Below, in pieces: positions 1-13,179 of a stretch of 64,000 nt of DNA (the stretch's first letter is position 1; the number at the start of each line of letters is the position of its first letter). The stretch comes from an uncultured cyanobacterium (GTDB taxonomy: Bacteria; Cyanobacteriota; Cyanobacteriia; Cyanobacteriales; Cyanobacteriaceae). The stretch lies in assembly GCA_963710605.1 (NCBI GenBank), contig CAVQBA010000001.1, forward strand, positions 1 to 64,000, in the 5' to 3' direction. The notes under the pieces were generated by a model. That model ran no database searches and was not told the DNA's origin. It worked only from the letters and a program-made list of their open reading frames with translations. The position numbers and the translations under genes were made by a program.

Positions 1-93
1 ATCTGATACTAGTAATTTACACAACAATGATTTAAAGCACATTCATATAGTGTATATTTTACATAACAATAATTAACTTCTAAAATTATTCTA

Positions 94-1411
94 TCAGATG
101 TCTTTAAAGTTTCCTACAGATGGGTCAAAATTGACTTTACAAGTACCAGTTGAACCATTTCTATTCTTACCCACAATTATCTCCGTAACCCCTGTATCTT
201 TTGTATTTGAGTTATAGTATTCATCTCGGTAAAGAAGTAAACCTAAGTCCATATCCTGCTCTATATCCCCCGAATCTTTAATATCACCCATAGAAGGGCG
301 TTTATTGCTTTGCCCTTCAACTCCTCGGTTTATTTGGGCTAAAACGATAAAAGGAACATCAAACATTTTAGCGATGTCTTTACACGCTCCTGAATATTTA
401 CCAATAGCTTGAGATCTATTCCTGCACTTCTATCCCCTAATTTTTGGATATAATCTAATACGACTAAACCTATTTCTCCCTTTTCGGGGGCAACTGTATG
501 CCACGTAATACAGAACGCATTTTGGCAGGAGTTAATTGACTTGCAGGAGTATCATCAATAATTATTGGTAGTTGTGACACCTGCTCTAACGAAGATACTA
601 AAAGCTCATATTCTTCTTCATAAATTTGATTGTGTATCAGTCGATGAGAATCAATACCTGTGTGCATTGAAAGAAATCTTTTAGTCAACTGTTCGTGACT
701 CATCTCCGCACTAAAGATTACTACGGTTTGTGTTCTTTGGTACAATATAATTAGCAAAGTAACAACCAAGCCAACTTTTCCCCATAGATGGTATTTTTTT
801 TTAACCACAATCAAATCTTGTTTTATCAAACCGCCAATCAGTTGGTCAAGATTACTCAGTCCAGTAGAATAGGCATTCCTTGCTCCATCGCTAATTTTAC
901 CCAAGACTTCAATTAAACTATCACCAATAGATTTAGGGTCAAATCTACCTGTTTTCTTAGTAGTTATATCAAACAACTTCTGTTCGCTACTATCAAAGAC
1001 TGTTTCTAAATTGGCAGAAGTATCACTGGCTAGTTCAACTATTTCTTGTCCTGTTTGTCGCAATAAACGGCGTTGATACTTATTCATTACTAACTCAACA
1101 TAATGTTGAGCTGTTTTAGATGTTACTGTAGAATCTAATAATTGAGTTAACTTGAGAGTACCACCAACAGAATCTAAAAGATTATGGTCTTGTAACCAAG
1201 TGCTGATAGTAGTTAAATCAGTCGGTTTGTTTTGACGATATATTTCTAGAGCAAATTCATAAATCTTTTGATGAGCAGAAAGGGAAAAAGCATCGGCAGG
1301 AAGCTGTGATGCAATTAAACCGATAATTTTTGGGTCAAATAGAATACTACCAAGAATTTGTTCTTCGGCTTCTATATTTGCTAGGAGCTTATTTTGATTA
1401 ATCGTCTTCAT
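94..1411 (-). pseudogene. dnaB: DnaB-family replicative helicase (element-encoded), split by about four frameshifts; real decay or sequencing error
   Basis: N-terminal NIEAEEQILGSIL. Walker A remnant PSMGKS and VVLDYIQ in shifted frames; FSAEMS; C-terminal LAQINR..RPSMGDIKDSGDIEQDMD..GKNRNG. ORFs 470..1411 and 94..366 join into one protein. Confidence 0.85.
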
Positions 1412-2252
1412 TACGGAATAAGTTACTAAGGGCTTTTAATTTATCGTTGCTAATTAATTTTTGGTCAGAAGGAGTTGATTTACTGACTATTTGTTGATGT
1501 TCGGGTTTGGTAACTTCAGGTGTAGATGATTGGTGATTCCATCCTTCTTTAATCGCTTTGTTTAACCATCCCCCTGCGTTACTAACCTTGGACTGTGCTA
1601 ATTGTTCCTTCAAGGCAGAAATAGCTTCTAATACTTGTTGCTCTTCTGCTTGTTTGATAGTTTTTTTTAAAGTGGGATTAAGTTTAACACCTAATTCTTT
1701 TAGCTCCTTTTCAATTGAAACAGTAGAAGTTTGAGGTGGACTTGTCAAAGGAGGAACTTTAGTCATACGACTAATGGGGATAACTTTTTCTGCTATCTCT
1801 TGTTCTTTAACTTTAGTAAGTAGTCGTTCATTTTCTTTTTGTAATCTTTCTACTTGGTCTTGTAGTTGATAGACTCGATATACTTGTCCTGCAAGAGCTT
1901 CATTCTTTTTCTTTAGTTCTTTGTTTTCATTTTCTACCCGTTTGAGTCGCTCTTGTAACTTCGTGATGATTTTACCTTGGGCGGTAGAATTAGGTTTATT
2001 GAGCGGTTTAACAGGCATAGAATTTTGTTGACTACGAAGTTCTGCCACTCGTTGCTTCAACTCAGGATATTTATATAAATAACTCACACTGACTTGGGCT
2101 TCTCTGGCTACAGTGGCAAAGTTAATCTTGGCATTGATTTTGAGTAACTTTTCTATTGCTTCATGAACACGATTACGGGATTCTTCTTTTCTTTTCTCCT
2201 GAGTGGATTTAAGGGTTTCAATTAGTTGTTCTCTAATATCAAAGTCTGCCAT
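1398..2252 (-). CDS. Tn554 TnpC / DUF6262-like protein with coiled coil and extra C-terminal domain
   Basis: AIEKL..KINFATVAREAQVSVSYLY..ELKQRV HTH-like motif, then a long coiled coil; located after the recombinases. Confidence 0.75.
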   Translation of the reverse strand: MADFDIREQLIETLKSTQEKRKEESRNRVHEAIEKLLKINAKINFATVAREAQVSVSYLYKYPELKQRVAELRSQQNSMPVKPLNKPNSTAQGKIITKLQERLKRVENENKELKKKNEALAGQVYRVYQLQDQVERLQKENERLLTKVKEQEIAEKVIPISRMTKVPPLTSPPQTSTVSIEKELKELGVKLNPTLKKTIKQAEEQQVLEAISALKEQLAQSKVSNAGGWLNKAIKEGWNHQSSTPEVTKPEHQQIVSKSTPSDQKLISNDKLKALSNLFRNEDD

Positions 2253-4237
2253 TATGCTACCTCGTGTTGTAATGACTGAATAATCTTGTTAAGGGTGTCG
2301 GCTTGTCTGCCAAACTGCTCGACTAAAACATTTTGCCCATTGGCATTAGCTGTAGATTGTTTTTTCCTTAGCTCATCTCTAACTTTGATATATTGGTCAA
2401 GTTTATCGGGAGTAGCGACAAAATGATTGCAAGTATAACAAGCTCTGAACTTATGACAATCTTGGTCTAAATCCAGTCCACAATAACCATAAATGGGCGT
2501 GTTAATATGTGTTCCAGAGAGTTCTAACTTATGAGCAGTAGGATTATCCCAGAACGATTTAGGGAAGGATTCATAAGGTACTTGTTTACCTTCTGCATTA
2601 ACTAAGGCTTTTTGAATATGTCCTGCTTCTTTATTAATGAGTTCACAACTAACTTTGGTATAGTAAGTGCTAGTGGTAGCAAAATGTTTATGTCCTGCCC
2701 ATGCACTCACTACCGCTAAATCATGTCCTTGTTCAAAAAGATTAGTTAAGCGAGTAGAACGTAATATTTTGTTTATAAAGGTTGCTAGTTGTCCATTTTC
2801 ATCTCGGATGTCTAAAGTAGTAATTAGAGTTCTTATACTTTTCATTAATGGATGTGAATCATTACTTTGTACAACCTTCTTAACAGGTACTAGATTAGGT
2901 TGAGATGCTTTTGTTGAAGATAGACCGTGATAATGACAGAACAAATAATCATATTCATCCCCCCATAGATTTTTAACATAATCTAGCTGTTCTTGAACAA
3001 CTTTGGCGATAGTTCTACTAATAGGTATTTCATGGTAATCTTTATTTTTTGGTCTGTACCAACGTAGTTTCCAATATTGTCCTTCTTGTATTAAACAATC
3101 CTGTTTGAGTTGAGCTAGTTCAGATGGACGCATTGCTCCAAAATAGCAGATTAGATATATTCGAGCGATGGGGTCTGGTAAAATATGTAAATTGGCTTCT
3201 ATTTGCTCTGTAACTTTTTGTGATAGGGGATCTGGATTGCCTCGGCGACGTTTAGGATAGTCTTCATCTCGAATAATATCTTGGTCAATATCAAACCAAC
3301 CCTTAACTGTACCCACAAAGAAAAAATCTCTTAATGGAGTTAACTTGGATTTAGTAACTTTTTTCTCTTTTGATAGGTAGTCAAGAAAAACTGTACGATT
3401 AATCTGTTCAAAATCACTAATAGCAGTAGTTTGTAAGTAAATAGATAATGAGCGGAAGGCGACTAGAACATGGTTGATTGTTCCAAAAGCCTTTTCTATT
3501 TTGCATAAATGTTCGACATACTGCTTAGCTTTGTCTTTCAACCATTGTTGCTTAATCTGACTGAAGTTAGCGATGGAATGTGTTAAATTTTTTGGGTTGT
3601 AGTTGAGATTAAGGTTTCTCAAATCCCATCGCTCATCTTGCCATTGAAATGGTTTTATATGTCTGTCTTGTTGTGTGAAATAACTTAAATTTACTTGATT
3701 TAACTCAATATAATCGTATTGAGTTTTACGACAACTTCGACAACTAAATGTCTTTTTGTTTTGCTTATTAATTCCTGCAATATACATATCCATTGCATTA
3801 CATTCAGGACAAACAAAGCCTTCTATCCTATGATTCCGATACCAGACCACACCTTTATTCGTTGGGTCTTCAATGGCTTCATAACCACCTTTGATATTGC
3901 ATGAATCCTGCTGTATTTTTTGGCAGTGAGGACATCGAAATTGCCTTTTATTATTGGGTTGCTTAATTCCTCCTACTACCATTCCTAAATGATTACATTC
4001 AGGGCAGATAAACTCACCGTGATAGTCTTGTCCCCAATCAACCTGTTCATCAATCAATCTATCTGTTAAATAACGAGAACGATTGTTCAAATTAATTGAA
4101 GAAACGACTGAACCTCTGCAATTTGAGCATCGAAATTGTTGCTTACCATTATTCAGCCCCCCTAATTTCAAAGGCATTTCATTGCATTTAGGGCAGATAA
4201 ATTCTCCTTGATAGTCTTGTTTCCAATTAATTTCCAT
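2252..4237 (-). CDS. Tyrosine recombinase (Tn554 TnpB-like) with three N-terminal zinc-ribbon repeats
   Basis: GAMRPSE, KILR, AGH..TYY; C-terminal GYC..C..ACYTC motif. The ATG at 4237 overlaps the upstream stop and is a likelier start than 4270. Confidence 0.85.
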   Translation of the reverse strand: MEINWKQDYQGEFICPKCNEMPLKLGGLNNGKQQFRCSNCRGSVVSSINLNNRSRYLTDRLIDEQVDWGQDYHGEFICPECNHLGMVVGGIKQPNNKRQFRCPHCQKIQQDSCNIKGGYEAIEDPTNKGVVWYRNHRIEGFVCPECNAMDMYIAGINKQNKKTFSCRSCRKTQYDYIELNQVNLSYFTQQDRHIKPFQWQDERWDLRNLNLNYNPKNLTHSIANFSQIKQQWLKDKAKQYVEHLCKIEKAFGTINHVLVAFRSLSIYLQTTAISDFEQINRTVFLDYLSKEKKVTKSKLTPLRDFFFVGTVKGWFDIDQDIIRDEDYPKRRRGNPDPLSQKVTEQIEANLHILPDPIARIYLICYFGAMRPSELAQLKQDCLIQEGQYWKLRWYRPKNKDYHEIPISRTIAKVVQEQLDYVKNLWGDEYDYLFCHYHGLSSTKASQPNLVPVKKVVQSNDSHPLMKSIRTLITTLDIRDENGQLATFINKILRSTRLTNLFEQGHDLAVVSAWAGHKHFATTSTYYTKVSCELINKEAGHIQKALVNAEGKQVPYESFPKSFWDNPTAHKLELSGTHINTPIYGYCGLDLDQDCHKFRACYTCNHFVATPDKLDQYIKVRDELRKKQSTANANGQNVLVEQFGRQADTLNKIIQSLQHEVA

Positions 4238-5717
4238 TACTGTTGCCCTCCAACCCTTGAATACGAACAATTAATCTTTCTTTATCATCGGTAAGTCCTT
4301 TACTTTGTCTAACTAAACCCAAATTAGTAGCTATCTCCAATTCCTCATCTATTCTCTGTAAGTCTTGTTTGAGGTAGTTTAGGTCATCCGTGGAAGTGAG
4401 CCAATGTTCACATTGCCAACAAGCATTAACAGTTTGACAGGGTGATTTTAAAACAGGGCGATGACATTCCCCATAGTTCGTCGTTACCTGATACATTTTT
4501 CTTCGCATTAACTCAGTAATAACATTTTTGGGTTTATGTTCTTTTACTATCTTTCCTGTACTGTCAACGTACTTTGTACTCTGCATTAATTCCTGATACT
4601 CTTCTCCCACTACCTCCTTAAGTAAATGTTTGTAGTAGTTCTGCATATCGGGAGAACGGTGACGTAGATACTTTTGAATAATTAAGTCTCTTACTCCTGC
4701 ATTAGTCATTACCGTTGCCACAGTCTTTCTGAATTGGTGAGAACGAAAATGCCAAAGATTTCCTTCTTTTGTACAGATATTTTGTTCCTCTGCCAGTTTA
4801 TTAAGCCAACGACTAAAGCCATCTACTTTCATTATTCTAGGAGCAGGGTTATATTTTCCAAATATACCATCGTTGCTACCGAACAGATTATGATAAGTAT
4901 CACCAAAGTGTTCTCGAATAAAATCTTGTTGTTCTTTAATAACGGCTACAAGTTCTTCACAGATAGGTAATTCATCCTCTGTCTTATACTTTTCTGTCAG
5001 AAATCTCAACCGCCATTCACTCCCTCTCTTACGTAAACAGTCTAAAGGTAAATTCAGTAGTTCTCCTATGCGTAATCCTGTTGCTCGAATGATTAACACC
5101 ATTCTCTGCTTTGGTGAGGGAAGCAAATGCAAGTGTTCATCTAGCTGTTGCCATACTTCTTCGGGGATGTATTCTACTTCGTCATTCTTTGCTTGAGAAC
5201 CATGATACTTACCTTTAAACCAATAAGTATTGACATCCAACCAACCTTCTTGCCGACAAAGGTTAAAGAAGTTGATCAATGTCATATAACGTAAAGAGAT
5301 ACTTCTTTGGGATAAAGGTTTTTTTGTCTGTTTGCTTTTCGTTGAATGTAAGTAGTAATCGTATTCATCTAATAGTTGTTCATTGATATCTTCTACACTA
5401 TAAACAGACTTAGTTTTCAAAAAGATAGAGAACTCCCTCAAAGAAGCAACATCATTCTTTAGATACATTGCCGAATAATTACGTTTAGCCCGAATCAATA
5501 TGTAGAGCTTAGTCAGCAGCTTCAACCAATCTTGTTGAATTTTATCAAATCTAATAGTTAAAACTTTTTGATGTTGATTCACACTTAACCCCAAATCTTC
5601 AATGGTTCGCCAAACATCTTTTTGTAGCAAAGGATTATTTAATAACTCTCTAGCAGACTCATTCTGTTCTACTAACCATAACTCAGGTTGGCTATTCCAA
5701 TCTGGTATTGCATTCAT
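4227..5717 (-). CDS. Tyrosine recombinase (Tn554 TnpB-like)
   Basis: TGLRIGE, HQFR, LRHRSPDMQNYY catalytic set; C-terminal GEC..C..ACWQC motif. Confidence 0.9.
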   Translation of the reverse strand: MNAIPDWNSQPELWLVEQNESARELLNNPLLQKDVWRTIEDLGLSVNQHQKVLTIRFDKIQQDWLKLLTKLYILIRAKRNYSAMYLKNDVASLREFSIFLKTKSVYSVEDINEQLLDEYDYYLHSTKSKQTKKPLSQRSISLRYMTLINFFNLCRQEGWLDVNTYWFKGKYHGSQAKNDEVEYIPEEVWQQLDEHLHLLPSPKQRMVLIIRATGLRIGELLNLPLDCLRKRGSEWRLRFLTEKYKTEDELPICEELVAVIKEQQDFIREHFGDTYHNLFGSNDGIFGKYNPAPRIMKVDGFSRWLNKLAEEQNICTKEGNLWHFRSHQFRKTVATVMTNAGVRDLIIQKYLRHRSPDMQNYYKHLLKEVVGEEYQELMQSTKYVDSTGKIVKEHKPKNVITELMRRKMYQVTTNYGECHRPVLKSPCQTVNACWQCEHWLTSTDDLNYLKQDLQRIDEELEIATNLGLVRQSKGLTDDKERLIVRIQGLEGNSNGN

Positions 5718-6799
5718 TCTTCTTCCTCCTGTTCGATTACTCTTCGTAAGTCTGCTTCTTCAATCACATGAGAATACACATCTAACGTCGTTTGAATACT
5801 GGCGTGTCCTAATAAATATTTGACTCTATCAGGAGAATAACCTGCTTTGAGCAAACGAGTGGCATAAGTATGACGAAATAAATGGGCATAAACCTTGATT
5901 CCCGTTTTTTGGGATAATCGAGTAAACATGACACTCAAAACATCAGGACTGATGGGCTTACCTATTTCTCCTTCCCAAATATTGATAAATACGTACTCTG
6001 ACTCTATTTCAGGATATTCATAAAGCAGATAATCGTTGTACATTTGGATTAGCTCTGGTATGACAGGAATCGTTCGTTCTTGCCCTTTAGCCAAAGCACC
6101 ATTTGGGTTATCTTTTCTTTTTACTACTTTAATGTAGTTTTCTCCAAAATCACTCACATCCTCATGTTTTAGACCTAGTATTTCTCCTTTACGCATTCCC
6201 GTACCATTAAGCATAAGGATAATCAACTTGTCTCTTAAACGATTACAGGCATTGACCAATACTTCTACCTGCTCATCTGTTAAGCATCCTGCAAACTTTT
6301 TCTTGCCTTTGAGCTTAACTAATTTTTGACGAACGGGCTTAGTTTTAGCAATACCTGTGAGTAGTCCTTTACTACTTCTGTTTGTGATGCCATAGGGTAA
6401 ATGAAATCTGTCGAACTGTTTGAAGTCCACAGTCTTGTTGGCAATATGATATTCGTAAAACTGTGTTACCCCCGTAATCATACGATTAACGGTACTTTCA
6501 CTTCTAATGGCTTCTATTCCTTGTAGATTGATGACAGCTTTATCTCCAACTCTGAGCCAGTGAGCATAGTTTTCTAAATCGGAGACATTTACTTCCCTCC
6601 AATCCAAACATTGTTGTTGAAGAAAAAGCCACCAGTATCTTAAATCGTGTCCATAAGATTTGATGGTATTAGGTGATTTGGTTGTAGTCATAAACGTCAA
6701 AAAACGTTGTATTGGTTCGACAATTTGATAGTCCTCATCAAACATCAACCAAACTGGTTCGTTTGTAACGGGATCTATTCCCTTTTGCAAAGACAACAT
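5714..6799 (-). CDS. Tyrosine recombinase (Tn554 TnpA-like)
   Basis: SPNTIKSYGHDL, GMRKGE, HLFRHTYAT, LLGHASIQTTLDVYSH. Confidence 0.9.
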   Translation of the reverse strand: MLSLQKGIDPVTNEPVWLMFDEDYQIVEPIQRFLTFMTTTKSPNTIKSYGHDLRYWWLFLQQQCLDWREVNVSDLENYAHWLRVGDKAVINLQGIEAIRSESTVNRMITGVTQFYEYHIANKTVDFKQFDRFHLPYGITNRSSKGLLTGIAKTKPVRQKLVKLKGKKKFAGCLTDEQVEVLVNACNRLRDKLIILMLNGTGMRKGEILGLKHEDVSDFGENYIKVVKRKDNPNGALAKGQERTIPVIPELIQMYNDYLLYEYPEIESEYVFINIWEGEIGKPISPDVLSVMFTRLSQKTGIKVYAHLFRHTYATRLLKAGYSPDRVKYLLGHASIQTTLDVYSHVIEEADLRRVIEQEEEE

Positions 6800-6904
6800 A
6801 AACTTTACACAATGAAGAAATATATGTATAAGCTTAACATGTTATTAGGTAAAAAAAAGGGGTCTTTGTTGTTGTTGTTTATTATTAAATATTTGTATTG
6901 TATA

Positions 6905-7528
6905 ACCCATATCTAACCCAATCATTTTCTTTGTTTGAGGTAGTTCTGGGGTTATATCTCTTACGTCTAGCTTCAAGCAAAACTGAGAATAATAGCCGTC
7001 GCTTCTCCTAACAATACGGACTCTTTGTATTTGGAATTCTTGGAAATAAAATAAATCTCTCGAACCAATTAACTTTAGAGTACCGATATTGTTACCGTCT
7101 GTGAAGGTTATTCTTTTGTTGTCTCTATCTAACTTCCATCCTGACTTTTTCAACTCGATACTTCGTGTTCGCTTAGAAAACTGAGGATAACCCGCTTGGT
7201 GCGCGTTCCCTTGCGCCTGTCGGCGGCGCGGGGTCGCATCCGCTTTCTTCCCTTTTATGTCTTTTTTACAATTATCATAAAATTTGGCAATTGCCGACCA
7301 TGCTCTTTCTCCAGCTTGTTGACACGCTGTTGAATTTAATTGTTTGACAAAAGAAAACTCTTTTCTCAAATCTGTAGTATGACGATAAATATCTTTTTTG
7401 CCTACTCCTCTTAAGTCCATCCATAAACGAATACATTTATTACGCACGAACTTTACGGTACGAATACCTTCGTCGATTGCTTTAAATTGTTCTGGCTTTC
7501 CTTTTAATTTGTATTCTAATAAAAACAT
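6905..7528 (-). pseudogene. tnpB: IS605-family RNA-guided nuclease TnpB, truncated at RuvC-I (IGLDMG), with a 17-codon in-frame insert
   Basis: EYKLKGK..AIDEGIRT..FVRNKC..LNSTACQ..ERAW..GYPQF..ELKKSGWKL..GTLKLIG..VRIVRRSDGYY..IGLDMG. The following codons (YTIQIFNNKQQQQ...) are non-homologous read-through. Confidence 0.9.
7193..7243 (-). repeat. ~50-bp GC-rich structured dispersed repeat (SDR-like) inserted in frame in tnpB
   Basis: Aligns with the copies at 33396 and 48705; separates KGKK from GYP. Confidence 0.75.
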
Positions 7529-9394: not shown

Positions 9395-10285
9395 ATGACA
9401 GTAAGTATAGATTCTATTCATAACGTAGTTGCGATCGAAGGTCACTATTGGCAATGGCGTGGAGAAAAAGTTTATTATGTTGAGGCGGGAGCAAAAAATA
9501 ATGACAAACCTGCTTTGTTATTAGTACATGGTTTTGGTGCTTCAACTGATCATTGGCGTAAAAATATTCATCAATTACAAAATGAATTTAATGTCTGGGC
9601 GATCGATTTATTAGGCTTTGGACGATCGGCAAAACCTGCGGGGGAATATAGTGGCAAACTATGGCAAGAACAATTAAACGATTTCATTACCGAGGTGATT
9701 CAACAACGTACTGTAGTAGCTGGTAATTCTTTAGGTGGATATGCTTGTTTATGTGCAGGGGCGAATTATCCTGATAATGTAGCCGGGGTAATTTTATTAA
9801 ACAGTGCAGGGCAGTTTTCTGATACAACAGTTGAAGAACCAAATTTGTTTCAAAAAGTCAGTGGCTGGACAATGCAAAGACGTATTGTCACTTATTTTCT
9901 GTTTAATAGATTACGTAACAAAAAAAATATTCGTAGTACTTTAGAAAAAGTATATTTAGATCCAACTACGATTACAGATCAATTAGTAGATGACATATAT
10001 CGTCCTTCTTGTGATAAAGGTGCATTAGAGGTATTTGGTTCGGTATTTAAAAGTCCTCAAGGAGAAAAAGTTGATGAGTTACTAGCTAAACTTAAAGTAC
10101 CTTTACTTAATATTTGGGGTGAATCAGATCCTTGGATACGTTGCCAAGAAAGAAGTTTAAAGTTTGAGCAGTATTATCCTAGCATTGAACAAACTTATGT
10201 CAAAGCTGGTCATTGTCCTCATGATGAAGTACCAGAAGAAGTTAATCGTACTATCAGCGATTGGATGAACAAAATTAATCTATAA
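9395..10285 (+). CDS. Alpha/beta fold hydrolase
   Basis: LLVHGFGAS, DLLGFGRS, GNSLGG nucleophile, AGHCPHDE. Confidence 0.92.
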   Translation: MTVSIDSIHNVVAIEGHYWQWRGEKVYYVEAGAKNNDKPALLLVHGFGASTDHWRKNIHQLQNEFNVWAIDLLGFGRSAKPAGEYSGKLWQEQLNDFITEVIQQRTVVAGNSLGGYACLCAGANYPDNVAGVILLNSAGQFSDTTVEEPNLFQKVSGWTMQRRIVTYFLFNRLRNKKNIRSTLEKVYLDPTTITDQLVDDIYRPSCDKGALEVFGSVFKSPQGEKVDELLAKLKVPLLNIWGESDPWIRCQERSLKFEQYYPSIEQTYVKAGHCPHDEVPEEVNRTISDWMNKINL

Positions 10286-10365: not shown

Positions 10366-11139
10366 TTAATATTGGGGTGCCGCAATTAAGATGATTTTTT
10401 CGATAATTTTTGGTGCGAGGCGTTGACCCCAGACGGCTAAATAACTTTGCCATCCCACTAAAATTTCGTCCGAATCTTTTTCTAATCCTTTAACTAATGC
10501 GATCGCTACTTTTTTAGGAGTAGTTTTTTTGACAAAAGCAAAAGTTTTTAACTCTCTAGACATATCGGTGTCTGTCAAAGAAGGAAGTAAAGCTATTACC
10601 TTTAATTTATGAACCGAAAGCTCACTTCTCAAGGCTTGGGTAAATCCTAAAATAGCAAACTTGGTAGCCGAATAAGTTGACATTGTCGGTGCGGCTACTT
10701 TGCCCATTAAGCTAGAAACATTAACAATAGTACCTTCTTTTCTCGTTGCCATCCTTCGAGCAACTAGACGGGTGATAGTGTACATCCCCATCAGATTCAA
10801 AGACATTTCTGCTTGAACTTGAGGGAGTTTTGATTCTAAAAACGGTACTTGATGGGCAATACCCGCACAGTTTACTAATAGATGAATTGGGCCATAATCT
10901 CGCCAAGCTTTGGCTACGGCAATATTGACAGCTACAGGTTCGGTTAAATCTAAGGGGATAATTACGGTTTCTACGTCGATCGTTTCTTTTATTTCTTGAG
11001 CTAATTGAGCTAGTTGATCACCATTACGAGCTACTAATAACAGTCGTTTTAAACCTTGCCCGGCTAATTGCTCAGCGATCGCTCTTCCGATGCCACGAGA
11101 TGCTCCTGTTACAAGAGCAGTTTTTCCTTGTATTTTCAT
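10366..11139 (-). CDS. Short-chain dehydrogenase/reductase
   Basis: TGASRGIG, NCAG, YSATK; ATG start MKIQ. Confidence 0.92.
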   Translation of the reverse strand: MKIQGKTALVTGASRGIGRAIAEQLAGQGLKRLLLVARNGDQLAQLAQEIKETIDVETVIIPLDLTEPVAVNIAVAKAWRDYGPIHLLVNCAGIAHQVPFLESKLPQVQAEMSLNLMGMYTITRLVARRMATRKEGTIVNVSSLMGKVAAPTMSTYSATKFAILGFTQALRSELSVHKLKVIALLPSLTDTDMSRELKTFAFVKKTTPKKVAIALVKGLEKDSDEILVGWQSYLAVWGQRLAPKIIEKIILIAAPQY

Positions 11140-11538
11140 TATTTTAAACAATCTCCATTTTTTGATGAGACTAAAGTTTTGATGTGCTAGACAACAATTG
11201 GGGAATTAGTTTTTTGATGCGTTTTCCCAATTGATGTAAATGTAGAACATAAATTATATGCCTCCTGAATACGAGCATTAAATGGATTAAGTACATATCA
11301 TGGATTTGTTATTAAATCAATGATAATTAATCATTCTTGATTAAAAACTTAATTAGTTGCCATCCTATCTTAGTCAATTTGCGAAAATAGGTGAGGAAAA
11401 CCGAACTAATTAGGTACGGTCGTTGATCAAAGTGTTAATCAATAGACGATCGACGCTTACTGAAAAGTATGTAAAGATTCTGGTATATTTTTTCATAAAT
11501 CTCAACAATACTATAGTTGTGACCTCCCCCAGAATTGG

Positions 11539-11771
11539 CAGGGCTGTTTCATGTCTTATGTTTGTATTTTCTACAACGCCAAAAATACCAGTAAATTTAG
11601 CCGTTTTTTTCTAATAATAAAAAGATAATATGACCAAATCGCTCGATCGAGTATGTAGTAGTAATAGCTTCTAGCTATTTATTTTTTGCTTCTAGCTATT
11701 TATTTTTTGCTTCTAGCTATTTATTTTTTGCTTCTAGCTATTTTCTTCTTTTTGAGAATGAAACAGTCCTG
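11539..11771. mobile_element. 233-bp MITE (ISAs1-like termini) with 11-bp target duplication and internal 21-bp tandem repeats
   Basis: TIRs CAGGGCTGTTTCAT / ATGAAACAGTCCTG; direct repeat CCCAGAATTGG at 11528-11538 and 11772-11782; GCTTCTAGCTATTTATTTTTT x3 plus a partial copy at 11667-11743. Confidence 0.85.
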
Positions 11772-11850
11772 CCCAGAATTGGGGGATGAGTGGGGGCGGG
11801 AGATGAGTGGGGGCTTTCTTTGTACTTCATAATGGCGATAATTGCTATAT

Positions 11851-13179
11851 CTAAGAACATTTTTCCTTTTCTTCTTCCATCTTCGTCTCAATCTGCGAAG
11901 GTAATCCTAATTGCACGTTGTTGTAAAGAGAATCAAATTCTCGTTGAAAATGTGTAGCTACCAATTGATTGTAGATAATTAAGAGAGTTTCATCATTAGT
12001 ATGATTTGCGGCGTTTGACCAATTATGAGAACCTGTAATTACGGTATAAGTATCGATAATGGCGAATTTATGATGTAGTTTGTCTCCTTTTGCTAAACTG
12101 GGAATACCGACAGTTGTGATAGGTTGCTTCCAAGGGCGATTATTTTTTTCGTAACGACATTTATTAAGTATCTCAACACCGAGTAAATCTAATCCTTCGC
12201 TATAGTAACGATAAGCAAAACTACGATCGATTAAAGCTCGAATTTGTACCCCTTCTAAAGCTTCTTTTTCCATTGTATTAGCTATTTGTTGATCGCTAAA
12301 AACAAACAAGGCTAAATCGATCGAATCGTTAGCAATTTGTAAAGTTTGACTAATTAAGCCATTACTACTATTTTGCCACGAACTAGAAGGGCTATCAGGA
12401 GAAAATTTAACAGTGATAGTTGCTCTATCCAAACTAATAGTTTTACTTACTCGCTGCGGTTTTTTTAAACCAAATAAACTATCTTTTTTTCCACCTACTC
12501 CATCACCCCATAAATAATTGAATTCTTCGGTAAATAGTTGTGCTAAATCAGGACTATTAATCACTAAAATATGATTAGTATTACCTCTGGTTTCTAAGTT
12601 GTCAAAATCGCCATGAATACCACTTAAAGTAAAATTAGCTGAGCCTGTAAGGACTTTTTGCCCATCAATAACCATAAATTTATGGTGCATTAAACCGCTA
12701 CCTTTACTACCATCTTCTGTATCGTCAATGATAGGGATATTATTCTGTTTGAGTAAGGTTAAACCGTGTTTATCGGGTAGTTTATCAGTAGGAATATTAT
12801 AATTATTTTCCAGTACTATTCTTACTCTAATACCTTTGTTTTTTTGCTGAATAATCGATCGTGCTATTTTACTTAAATTTAATTCTTGTACGGCAATATC
12901 AATACTTGTAGTTGCTGAATTGATTTGCTCAATGATTACGGCTTCTAAGTCATCACCATTACGCTCAAGATTGCGATAAGATTCTTGATATTTTCGATCG
13001 ACTGCCTGATTATGATTAAAATAAACTTGTATTTGCGAATCTTGCGGTAAGGATGAAATTTTTTGGGAATTACTACCGCAACTATTAATAAATAACGAAC
13101 AACCCATTAATGTAAATAACAAGATTAAAAATCGATCGATCGTTATTAATCTTACTATCTTAAAACGGGTGTATTTCAT
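11851..13179 (-). CDS. Phospholipase D-family (2x HKD) nuclease-like lipoprotein, cyanobacterial ComA-like
   Basis: HHKFMVID..TGSANF and HHKFAIID..TGSHNW; N-terminal hydrophobic segment ending in a lipobox-like SC. Confidence 0.85.
   Translation of the reverse strand: MKYTRFKIVRLITIDRFLILLFTLMGCSLFINSCGSNSQKISSLPQDSQIQVYFNHNQAVDRKYQESYRNLERNGDDLEAVIIEQINSATTSIDIAVQELNLSKIARSIIQQKNKGIRVRIVLENNYNIPTDKLPDKHGLTLLKQNNIPIIDDTEDGSKGSGLMHHKFMVIDGQKVLTGSANFTLSGIHGDFDNLETRGNTNHILVINSPDLAQLFTEEFNYLWGDGVGGKKDSLFGLKKPQRVSKTISLDRATITVKFSPDSPSSSWQNSSNGLISQTLQIANDSIDLALFVFSDQQIANTMEKEALEGVQIRALIDRSFAYRYYSEGLDLLGVEILNKCRYEKNNRPWKQPITTVGIPSLAKGDKLHHKFAIIDTYTVITGSHNWSNAANHTNDETLLIIYNQLVATHFQREFDSLYNNVQLGLPSQIETKMEEEKEKCS

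Follow-up and report, generated by a model that had tools for sequence, protein, structure and literature searches.

Transposons of the Tn554 family encode a small and a large tyrosine recombinase and a DUF6262/TnpC protein, all in one direction. In the available passages of the papers describing them, Tn554 and the SEs are reported to carry a footprint of six base pairs (6 bp) from the donor site (PMC10214605). The host ranges given there for Tn554-related, SE, GInt and RIT elements comprise Firmicutes, Actinobacteria and Proteobacteria (PMC5385486, PMC10214605, PMC3414803), the SEs being found only in Gammaproteobacteria and the GInts in Gamma- and Betaproteobacteria (PMC10214605). No recognisable domain is described in the N-terminal extension of the long recombinase in the relevant passages of PMC3414803; the role of this extension in TnpB-type recombinases and the site choice of Tn554-like, SE and GInt elements are stated as open in PMC5385486, PMC10214605 and PMC3414803, as far as their passages go. 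The present analysis concerns a stretch of 64,000 nucleotides from an uncultured cyanobacterium (positions 1 to 64,000 of contig CAVQBA010000001.1; hereafter the window), which begins with a Tn554-like element of about 6.9 kb (positions 1-6905). The large recombinase B2 of this element carries three tandem zinc-ribbon modules in front of its catalytic core.

It is proposed, with about even confidence, that B2 is the TnpB-type catalytic subunit of a Tn554-like transposon and that its zinc-ribbon array is an accessory DNA-reading domain aiding target choice. That B2 is catalytic, that the array binds DNA and that it has a part in target choice are predictions from sequence, and the evidence on targets is correlative. 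The family places a recognisable and countable domain at the position of the TnpB N-terminal extension, and because natural variants with 1-7 modules occur together with several well-defined targets, the question of target choice becomes directly testable. The finding also extends the Tn554-like class to cyanobacteria and reveals a lineage that inserts at the catalytic RuvC-I codons of IS605-type tnpB genes, a case of a mobile element disabling a second one. Should insertion indeed be directed by the array, recombinase engineering would have an interest in it. A literature search covering listings, abstracts and passages returned no zinc-ribbon array on a Tn554-type recombinase, no account of this cyanobacterial family and no recombinase elements in tnpB; the word 'zinc' is absent from PMC5385486 and PMC10214605.

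The cassette and its large recombinase

The element carries five minus-strand genes in the order A, B1, B2, DUF6262 and DnaB-like helicase, which overlap successively by 1-14 nucleotides (nt) and are translationally coupled:

5714..6799, minus strand: A, a small TnpA-like recombinase of 361 amino acids (aa), with Pfam and NCBIfam matches
4227..5717, minus strand: B1, a 496-aa recombinase paralogous to B2, without array, which keeps H-Q-F-R
2252..4237, minus strand: B2, a 661-aa large tyrosine recombinase (P0001), recognised from its open reading frame (ORF), translation, Pfam Phage_integrase match and homologues
1398..2252, minus strand: DUF6262 protein of 284 aa at the TnpC position (PF19776, E 1e-12)
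94..1411, minus strand: DnaB-like helicase in two frames (470-1411 and 94-366), with Pfam DnaB and DnaB_C matches, following DUF6262 in many loci

The small recombinases encoded by Tn554-like elements of Staphylococcus and Enterococcus plasmids share 30.6-36.7% identity with A. In a Tn554-like element from a plasmid of Staphylococcus epidermidis, the genes for TnpA (370 aa), TnpB (687 aa) and a DUF6262 protein of 121 aa follow in the same order, and this TnpB matches B2 at E 6e-14 and B1 at E 2e-23. The alignments cover a W-x-x-D-x-W-D-x-R-N-L motif, the recombinase core and a C-terminal Cys cluster. B1 and B2 match each other at E 5e-33 (25% identity), which together with their common resemblance to staphylococcal TnpB bears out the proposal of the first-pass annotation, made from the sequence of the window, that B2 is a duplicated TnpB-like paralog. 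Further likenesses to the Tn554 family, as described in passages of the cited papers, are site-specific insertion inside genes with a 6-bp footprint from the previous site (PMC10214605) and a long N-terminal extension on the large recombinase (PMC3414803).

The cassette differs from Tn554 in several respects. It has two TnpB-like paralogs instead of a single TnpB with HxxR, B2 lacks the His of this box, and a DnaB-like helicase is added. The extension of B2 consists of 1-7 zinc ribbons, whereas that of staphylococcal TnpB consists of about 190 residues without Cys motifs or a Pfam zinc-ribbon match. The hosts are cyanobacteria, and the targets are glycine-loop codons such as those of RuvC-I in tnpB. 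With the SEs and GInts the cassette shares, according to passages of PMC5385486 and PMC10214605, an arrangement of four coupled genes at one end (small recombinase, middle paralog, large recombinase and small TnpC-like protein), as well as target specificity with a 6-bp spacer or footprint. In contrast, the middle proteins Tfp and GinC of these elements are described there as lacking the catalytic residues, while B1 has the full set and B2 lacks the His alone. The gene sizes (361, 496 and 661 aa) together with the DUF6262 protein suggest a place near Tn554 rather than among the RIT (recombinase in trio) elements, which are described in the passages available by their RitA, RitB and RitC families and the additions specific to these.

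The cassette was found at 12 loci of species-representative genomes and at 61 metagenome loci, and in 6 of 401 sampled cyanobacterial genomes at E ≤ 1e-60, the source genome included. The order A-B1-B2-DUF6262 persists in relatives whose identity is as low as 27-29%, and their B2 proteins have 2-4 modules. The DnaB-like helicase is the fifth coupled gene in many relatives (L013, L017, L024 and others; L-numbers denote loci with related cassettes) and is absent from some sub-families; it may serve the replication of a circular or copy-out intermediate. At L013 (12289-17775, minus strand) and L022 (4853-8818, plus strand) a second, more distant cassette adjoins the first, and that of L022 has a single large recombinase (659 aa, with faint module matches) between A and DUF6262.

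The open frame holding B2 spans 2252..4270 on the minus strand. The probable start is an ATG at 4237, which lies 8 nt past GGAGGG and gives an 11-nt overlap with the stop of the upstream gene, so that positions 3715-4237 encode residues 1-174. The Phage_integrase profile (PF00589) matches B2 at E 4e-14 with 53.2 bits (cut-off 27.1). In a Foldseek search the B2 core has XerH, IntI, XerA and Cre as its top matches (E 1e-7 to 1e-5), while a search of solved structures with the B2 sequence gave one weak XerC-like match (E 0.02). The AlphaFold2 (AF2) model of the whole protein has a mean predicted local distance difference test score (pLDDT) of 77 and a predicted template modelling score (pTM) of 0.39, and its helices 610-660 form a C-terminal hairpin. 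The main features of the catalytic part are:

2759..2770, minus strand: K490-I-L-R493, read from the translation, which replaces the H-x-x-R box
2660..2662, minus strand: Tyr526, the presumed nucleophile, aligned with the Tyr of TnpB and TnpA-like proteins
2429..2482, minus strand: Cys cluster C586-x7-C594-x5-C600-x2-C603, invariant in 50 of 50 homologues and followed by a long helix pair; the cluster also aligns with B1 and staphylococcal TnpB

Conservation was assessed in 50 homologues picked across 120 listed of the 172 found. R370, K397, R493, H516 and Y526 are invariant in all 50, down to about 50% identity. Column 490 holds K in 37, R in seven, S in four, N in one and C in one, and His in none. 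B2 therefore keeps five of the six residues of the R-K-H-R-H/W-Y set, the first His being K490 in the box N-K490-I-L-R493. The earlier reading of KILR at the HxxR position, with R, K, the second H and Y kept, stands. Its description of an altered catalytic His applies as well, but not as a peculiarity of this copy: since column 490 varies across the family and is never His, the change is, as judged from the alignment, a family-wide trait at a relaxed position and not a lesion. Type IB topoisomerases have K-x-x-R at the equivalent place, and Cre with a mutated His retains activity. The strong constraint on the other five residues argues that B2 is still an enzyme, and it should be able to cut and rejoin DNA.

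It may alternatively be supposed that B2 is a non-catalytic architectural paralog, like Tfp of the SEs or GinC of the GInts, and that A and B1 do the cutting. The absence of His at position 490, with S, N or C in 6 of 50 homologues, would fit this, as would the retention of R, HxxR, H and Y by all 35 B1 proteins encoded at the loci; passages of PMC10214605 and PMC5385486 also describe related elements with a non-catalytic middle protein. The invariance of R370, K397, R493, H516 and Y526 is hard to explain without catalysis, and this alternative is thought highly improbable. The pattern of modules and catalytic residues in B2 is far beyond chance, and a chance or pseudogene reading is ruled out by conservation.

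The zinc-ribbon array

Residues 1-181 of B2 form three units, each about 50 aa long and recurring roughly every 64 aa. A unit begins with W-x7/8-F-x-C-P-x-C, followed by about 18 residues with a Gly and a basic patch and by F-x-C-x-x-C:

4085..4234, minus strand: module 1, residues 2-51, W5-x7-F13-x-CPKC ... F35-x-CSNC (module profile 69 bits; NCBIfam IS1_IS1595_Zn; three-stranded unit in AF2)
3890..4045, minus strand: module 2, residues 65-116, W68-x7-F76-x-CPEC ... F100-x-CPHC (module profile 78 bits; AF2 strands at 84-111; Dof and NrdR matches at Z 4.1-4.3)
3695..3853, minus strand: module 3, residues 129-181, adjoining the recombinase core, W132-x8-F141-x-CPEC ... F164-x-CRSC (module profile 72 bits; Zn_ribbon_InsA)

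The bit scores are those of a module hidden Markov model (HMM) built from homologues; counting by regular expression was dropped, because it undercounts degenerate units. The HMM confirms the three tandem modules recognised in the first-pass annotation, although the spacing of x7 given there for all of them holds for the first two only, module 3 having x8. The array has 12 Cys residues, which form two CxxC knuckles per module, and across 39 three-module sequences each Cys shows full or at least 90% conservation. At the DNA level, modules 1 and 2 are 84% identical over 50 nt (window 4181-4230 versus 3992-4041).

The likeness of the modules to IS1 InsA-type ribbons, suspected from the beginning, is upheld by the profile searches. 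NCBIfam IS1_IS1595_Zn (NF050000) matches the array at 32.9 bits (cut-off 28) and IS256_N_4Cys at 29 bits (cut-off 27), while Pfam Zn_ribbon_InsA stays just under its cut-off (25.8 against 26.1 bits), Zn_ribbon_IS1595 is also below (24.3 against 25.4) and Elf1 gives a weak, sub-threshold match. In common with the transposases of IS1 (InsA), IS1595 and IS256 type, the module is a C4 ribbon with two CxxC knuckles. It differs from the ribbons of these transposases in being fused to a tyrosine recombinase instead of a DDE transposase or a helix-turn-helix (HTH) domain, in its family-specific W-x7/8-F lead-in, and in its repetition as positional orthologs.

A structure prediction had been suggested as a check, and it is compatible with the modular reading. 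In the AF2 models of both the whole protein and residues 1-190 (pLDDT 69.5, pTM 0.36), three separate three-stranded units are formed, with strands at pLDDT about 70-89 and linkers below 50. Given these linkers, the array looks like beads on a string in the models. The closest solved folds are zinc ribbons that bind nucleic acid: Dof with DNA (Z 4.3) and NrdR (4.1-4.2) come first, and L37ae, TFIIS and Elf1 follow at Z 2.9-3.8. A search of the ESM Atlas with residues 1-190 gave a best score of 0.77, below the useful range.

Another possibility is that the array reads no nucleic acid, but is a protein-interaction or regulatory module that docks, for example, a host factor or another product of the element (A, B1, the DUF6262 protein or the DnaB-like helicase). 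Contacts with proteins are a frequent function of zinc ribbons, the array is only mildly basic in charge, and the translational coupling of five genes suggests a complex of fixed stoichiometry. Two observations speak against such docking: sub-families without DnaB keep the array, and the nearest sequence families are transposase DNA-binding zinc ribbons, elsewhere paired with HTH. This explanation is considered decidedly unlikely.

The search of a large protein collection gave the 172 B2 homologues at E ≤ 1e-3; all of the named ones are cyanobacterial, and one is labelled 'Tn554, transposase B' by its source. The expectation that the repeat number would vary between elements proved correct. 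Among the 120 homologues listed, modules counted by the HMM are distributed as follows:

0 modules: 3 proteins
1 module: 6 proteins
2 modules: 69 proteins (the mode)
3 modules: 37 proteins
4 modules: 3 proteins
5 modules: 1 protein
7 modules: 1 protein

The three zero-module proteins are short and may be truncated calls. Protein lengths of the homologues step by about 65 aa.

When 35 three-module and 68 two-module proteins were compared position by position, same-position modules of different proteins were found to be 47-50% identical, but different-position modules only 28-36%, whether within or between proteins. The higher same-position identity indicates that the modules are positional orthologs, that is, old and individually conserved positions as far as the sequences can tell, and not products of recent slippage. 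The extra N-terminal unit of the three-module proteins is most like the unit right after it. The array diverges faster than the core, the array-to-core identity ratio being 0.54-0.91 in 45 pairs. It is also rare: among 1.84 billion representative proteins, 49 match it at E ≤ 1e-3, mostly fragments of the B2 family. The few unrelated matches are tandem InsA-type ribbons with HTH (P0168, P0165).

Element ends, targets and module number

The window is the start of the first of seven contigs (C1) of a genome of 3.93 Mb that is 84.9% complete. A second copy of the element, 98.3-99.8% identical, is split between the end of contig C5 and the start of C2. Both copies start, in gene orientation, with TTATACAATAC, which is preceded by the N-terminal part of an IS605-type tnpB. 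The two interrupted genes are different paralogs, and the cut in each lies immediately behind the G-x-D-x-G codons of RuvC-I; the window has ..G-L-D-M-G| and copy 2 has ..G-V-D-L-G|. An intact 420-aa tnpB on contig C6, which matches OrfB_IS605 and is 99% identical to the window fragment, shows the uninterrupted site. In copy 2, tnpB resumes in frame on C2 after ..GTATCAGATAA-CTTAGG, as judged against a paralog of 72-76% identity. The tnpB flanks match HTH_OrfB_IS605 (E 2e-13) and OrfB_IS605 (E 1e-13). The placement of the element at a tnpB junction, as the first-pass annotation had it, is thus confirmed by the copies, the empty site and the flanking domains. With 24 OrfB_IS605 matches in the genome, targets are plentiful. 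The features of the two ends in the window are:

6906..7528, minus strand: N-terminal part of the interrupted IS605-type tnpB, the target
6906..6911, minus strand: crossover hexamer TATGGG, the last bases of the G-L-D-M-G codons, up to which the intact tnpB is 99% identical
6895..6905, minus strand: left terminal arm TTATACAATAC, the first element bases in gene orientation, from comparison of the two copies and the empty site
6868..6879, minus strand: (AAC)4 tract inside the left end, at the same place in related loci
1..9, minus strand: partial right terminal arm GTATCAGAT.., inside which the contig begins and which in copy 2 continues into ..GTATCAGATAA-CTTAGG-tnpB

In related loci the left end has the form TTAT-nnn-ATAC, and the right end GTAT-nnn-ATAA followed by six bases and then by the flank. 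On this pattern, joining of the ends would bring imperfect inverted arms to either side of a 6-bp spacer and so give the classical core site of a tyrosine recombinase. The hexamers beside the two ends compare as follows:

Copy 2: left TTTGGG, right CTTAGG
L024: left TTTCGG, right TGTGGG
L017: left CCTGGG, right TTTGGG
L012: left CGTAGG, right CGTAGG (equal)
L013: left GATTGG, right CATTGG (one base differs)

The clade of the window element has a final GG in 13 of 15 left hexamers and in all 6 on the right. The junctions of these five elements point to site-specific insertion of the Tn554 type, with a 6-bp core, a footprint of the donor site and no long target duplication.

Two further observations concern element junctions. 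On contig C2 (3400-9900, L010), the C-terminal half of the tnpB of copy 2 is further broken by ORFs of group II intron reverse transcriptase (RT) and an IS630-like transposase, its zinc-finger end lying at 9573-9878, so that a nest of mobile elements is seen. At L071 (2351-2390), the right arm and a hexamer are followed by TTATGTAATA, i.e. the right end abuts left-arm-like sequence; this could be a joined-end form, a tandem insertion or an arm-mimicking target.

The targets of relatives were read from the junctions and from domains in the flanks:

IS605-type tnpB at G-x-D-x-G: window, copy 2, L024 (a finished plasmid of Chondrocystis NIES-4102), L040, and the right flank of L021
C5 cytosine methylase at G-G-L-D-L-G: L017 (PF00145, E 3e-50, from profile position 16)
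Short ORF ending in A-G-V-D-I-G: L046 (weak deoxyribonuclease V, or endonuclease V, match; E 0.006, 16 bits)
ORF at E-P-A-[VI]-G|T-G: L012 and L013 (junction reading)
Strawberry-notch-type helicase at A-G-G-T-G: L015
RecD-like P-loop: L034 and L059
RsgA P-loop, in opposite orientation: L080
GIY-YIG protein: L076
CoiA_N protein: L033
H-T-G-Y-T-H motif: L058 and L086

Pfam and NCBIfam searches of the flanks gave no match for the ORF of L012 and L013, that of L058 and L086 (H-T-G-Y-T-H|) or L054. The motif E-P-A-[VI]-G|T-G may be motif I of an N6-methyltransferase.

The DNA pattern GGnnnnGAYnTnGG is common to three unrelated target gene families, which puts recognition at the DNA level. One left-arm type, TTATCTTATAC, is present in L015-L018, L017 and L040, and another, TTATTTAATAC, in L012, L013, L024, L046, L080 and L042; the arm type of the window element is likewise found in related loci. 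Since a single left-arm type goes with several targets, the arm alone does not fix the target. Comparison of the repeat number with the insertion target, another check suggested by the first-pass annotation, gave a correlation: the left junction lies at G-x-D-x-G codons in 6 of 9 elements with at least three modules, as against 0 of 16 with two or fewer. In a tree of the core, module number and target change inside one well-supported clade (100/98). This outcome is no more than correlative evidence for the target-selection role proposed earlier, with kin among the elements counted and with four exceptions (L033, L034, L055 and L021; see below).

On the favoured explanation, the transposition machinery would consist of the three recombinases A, B1 and B2, a TnpC-like DUF6262 protein and a DnaB-like helicase, made from one coupled operon. 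Insertion would be site-selective and without long target duplication, and the hexamer beside the right end would have been carried over from an earlier site. The array, standing in place of the N-terminal extension of other TnpB-type recombinases and flexibly tethered, would read DNA outside the core site and hold B2 there. Such holding would contribute to lineage-specific target choice, the sequence read here being roughly GGnnnnGAYnTnGG, i.e. the codons of G-x-D-x-G in tnpB.

The ends also bear on a different function of the array, namely binding of the element's own ends at arm-type sites, after the manner of the N-terminal domain of lambda Int, whereby the synapse would be assembled and directionality set. 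B2 and lambda Int are alike in that an extra N-terminal domain, DNA-binding in lambda Int, is tethered to a core-binding and catalytic recombinase, and the core fold of B2 matches XerH, IntI, Cre, Tn1549 Int and lambda Int; the extra domain of B2 differs in having another fold and in being repeated. A tethered multi-domain layout suits the bridging of distant sites. In six elements, words like GTGTAA/ATGTAA occur repeatedly within 130 bp of subterminal sequence at both ends, and 25 of 26 left ends have an (AAC)3-6 tract, the most conserved non-coding feature of the family, at a set position that lies 68-92 nt upstream of gene A. However, the number of subterminal words or AAC units does not track that of the modules (four AAC units occur with 1, 2, 3 or 4 modules), and no repeat was seen whose period equals that of the array. 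Binding of the ends is judged unlikely, though of some weight.

A stronger version of the DNA-reading proposal may also be stated. The modules might form a modular recognition array in which each reads a short stretch beside the crossover, and a transposon that gained, lost or exchanged modules would be redirected to a different conserved coding motif. The motifs concerned would be the G-x-D-x-G of tnpB, C5-methylase and endonuclease V-like genes, P-loops and methyltransferase-like glycine loops. The array would then be a protein-coded target selector that evolution can program, and the lineage a dedicated parasite of OMEGA/TnpB nuclease genes. Modular reading of this kind is considered quite unlikely.

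Several observations weigh against the proposal that B2 is a catalytic subunit whose array reads target DNA. Kinship among the elements confounds the association of module number with target; of the six insertions at G-x-D-x-G, two belong to copies of a single element. The three-module elements L034, L033 and L055 sit at other sites, and the two-module L021 has tnpB (G|LKEF..) at its right junction. For the more distant relatives, the element ends were assigned by visual inspection. Same-target pairs do not exceed pairs with L033 in their array-to-core identity ratio, which hence gives no clear signal of target coupling. The array has weak structural matches, all with Z below 5, although low scores are to be expected of a domain of this size. 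Its pI of 8.4 (single modules 7.8-8.8) is only mildly basic, and zinc ribbons can bind protein or RNA as well. In the catalytic part, the tolerance of S, N and C at position 490 means that Lys is not a conserved functional replacement for His. Finally, 27 mismatches and 22 small indels separate the two copies, and the sequence quality of the repeat is imperfect; in view of these differences, assembly errors instead of decay may account for the frame breaks, which affect DnaB in copy 1 and several genes in copy 2.

At L021, a group II intron RT/maturase ORF runs into the left junction and tnpB stands at the right (1234-2731; 10745-11389), and the unlike flanks suggest a rearrangement between copies.

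Other features of the window

Window 11523-11864 contains short repeats, some of about 140-260 bp and others of about 45-70 bp, which are present in dozens of copies of 74-98% identity on all seven contigs and are probably elements resembling miniature inverted-repeat transposable elements (MITEs). A 442-aa ORF at 11851-13179 on the minus strand has a lipoprotein-like N-terminus and two H-x-K motifs (..MHHKFMV.. and ..LHHKFAI..), which are typical of phospholipase D-type enzymes.

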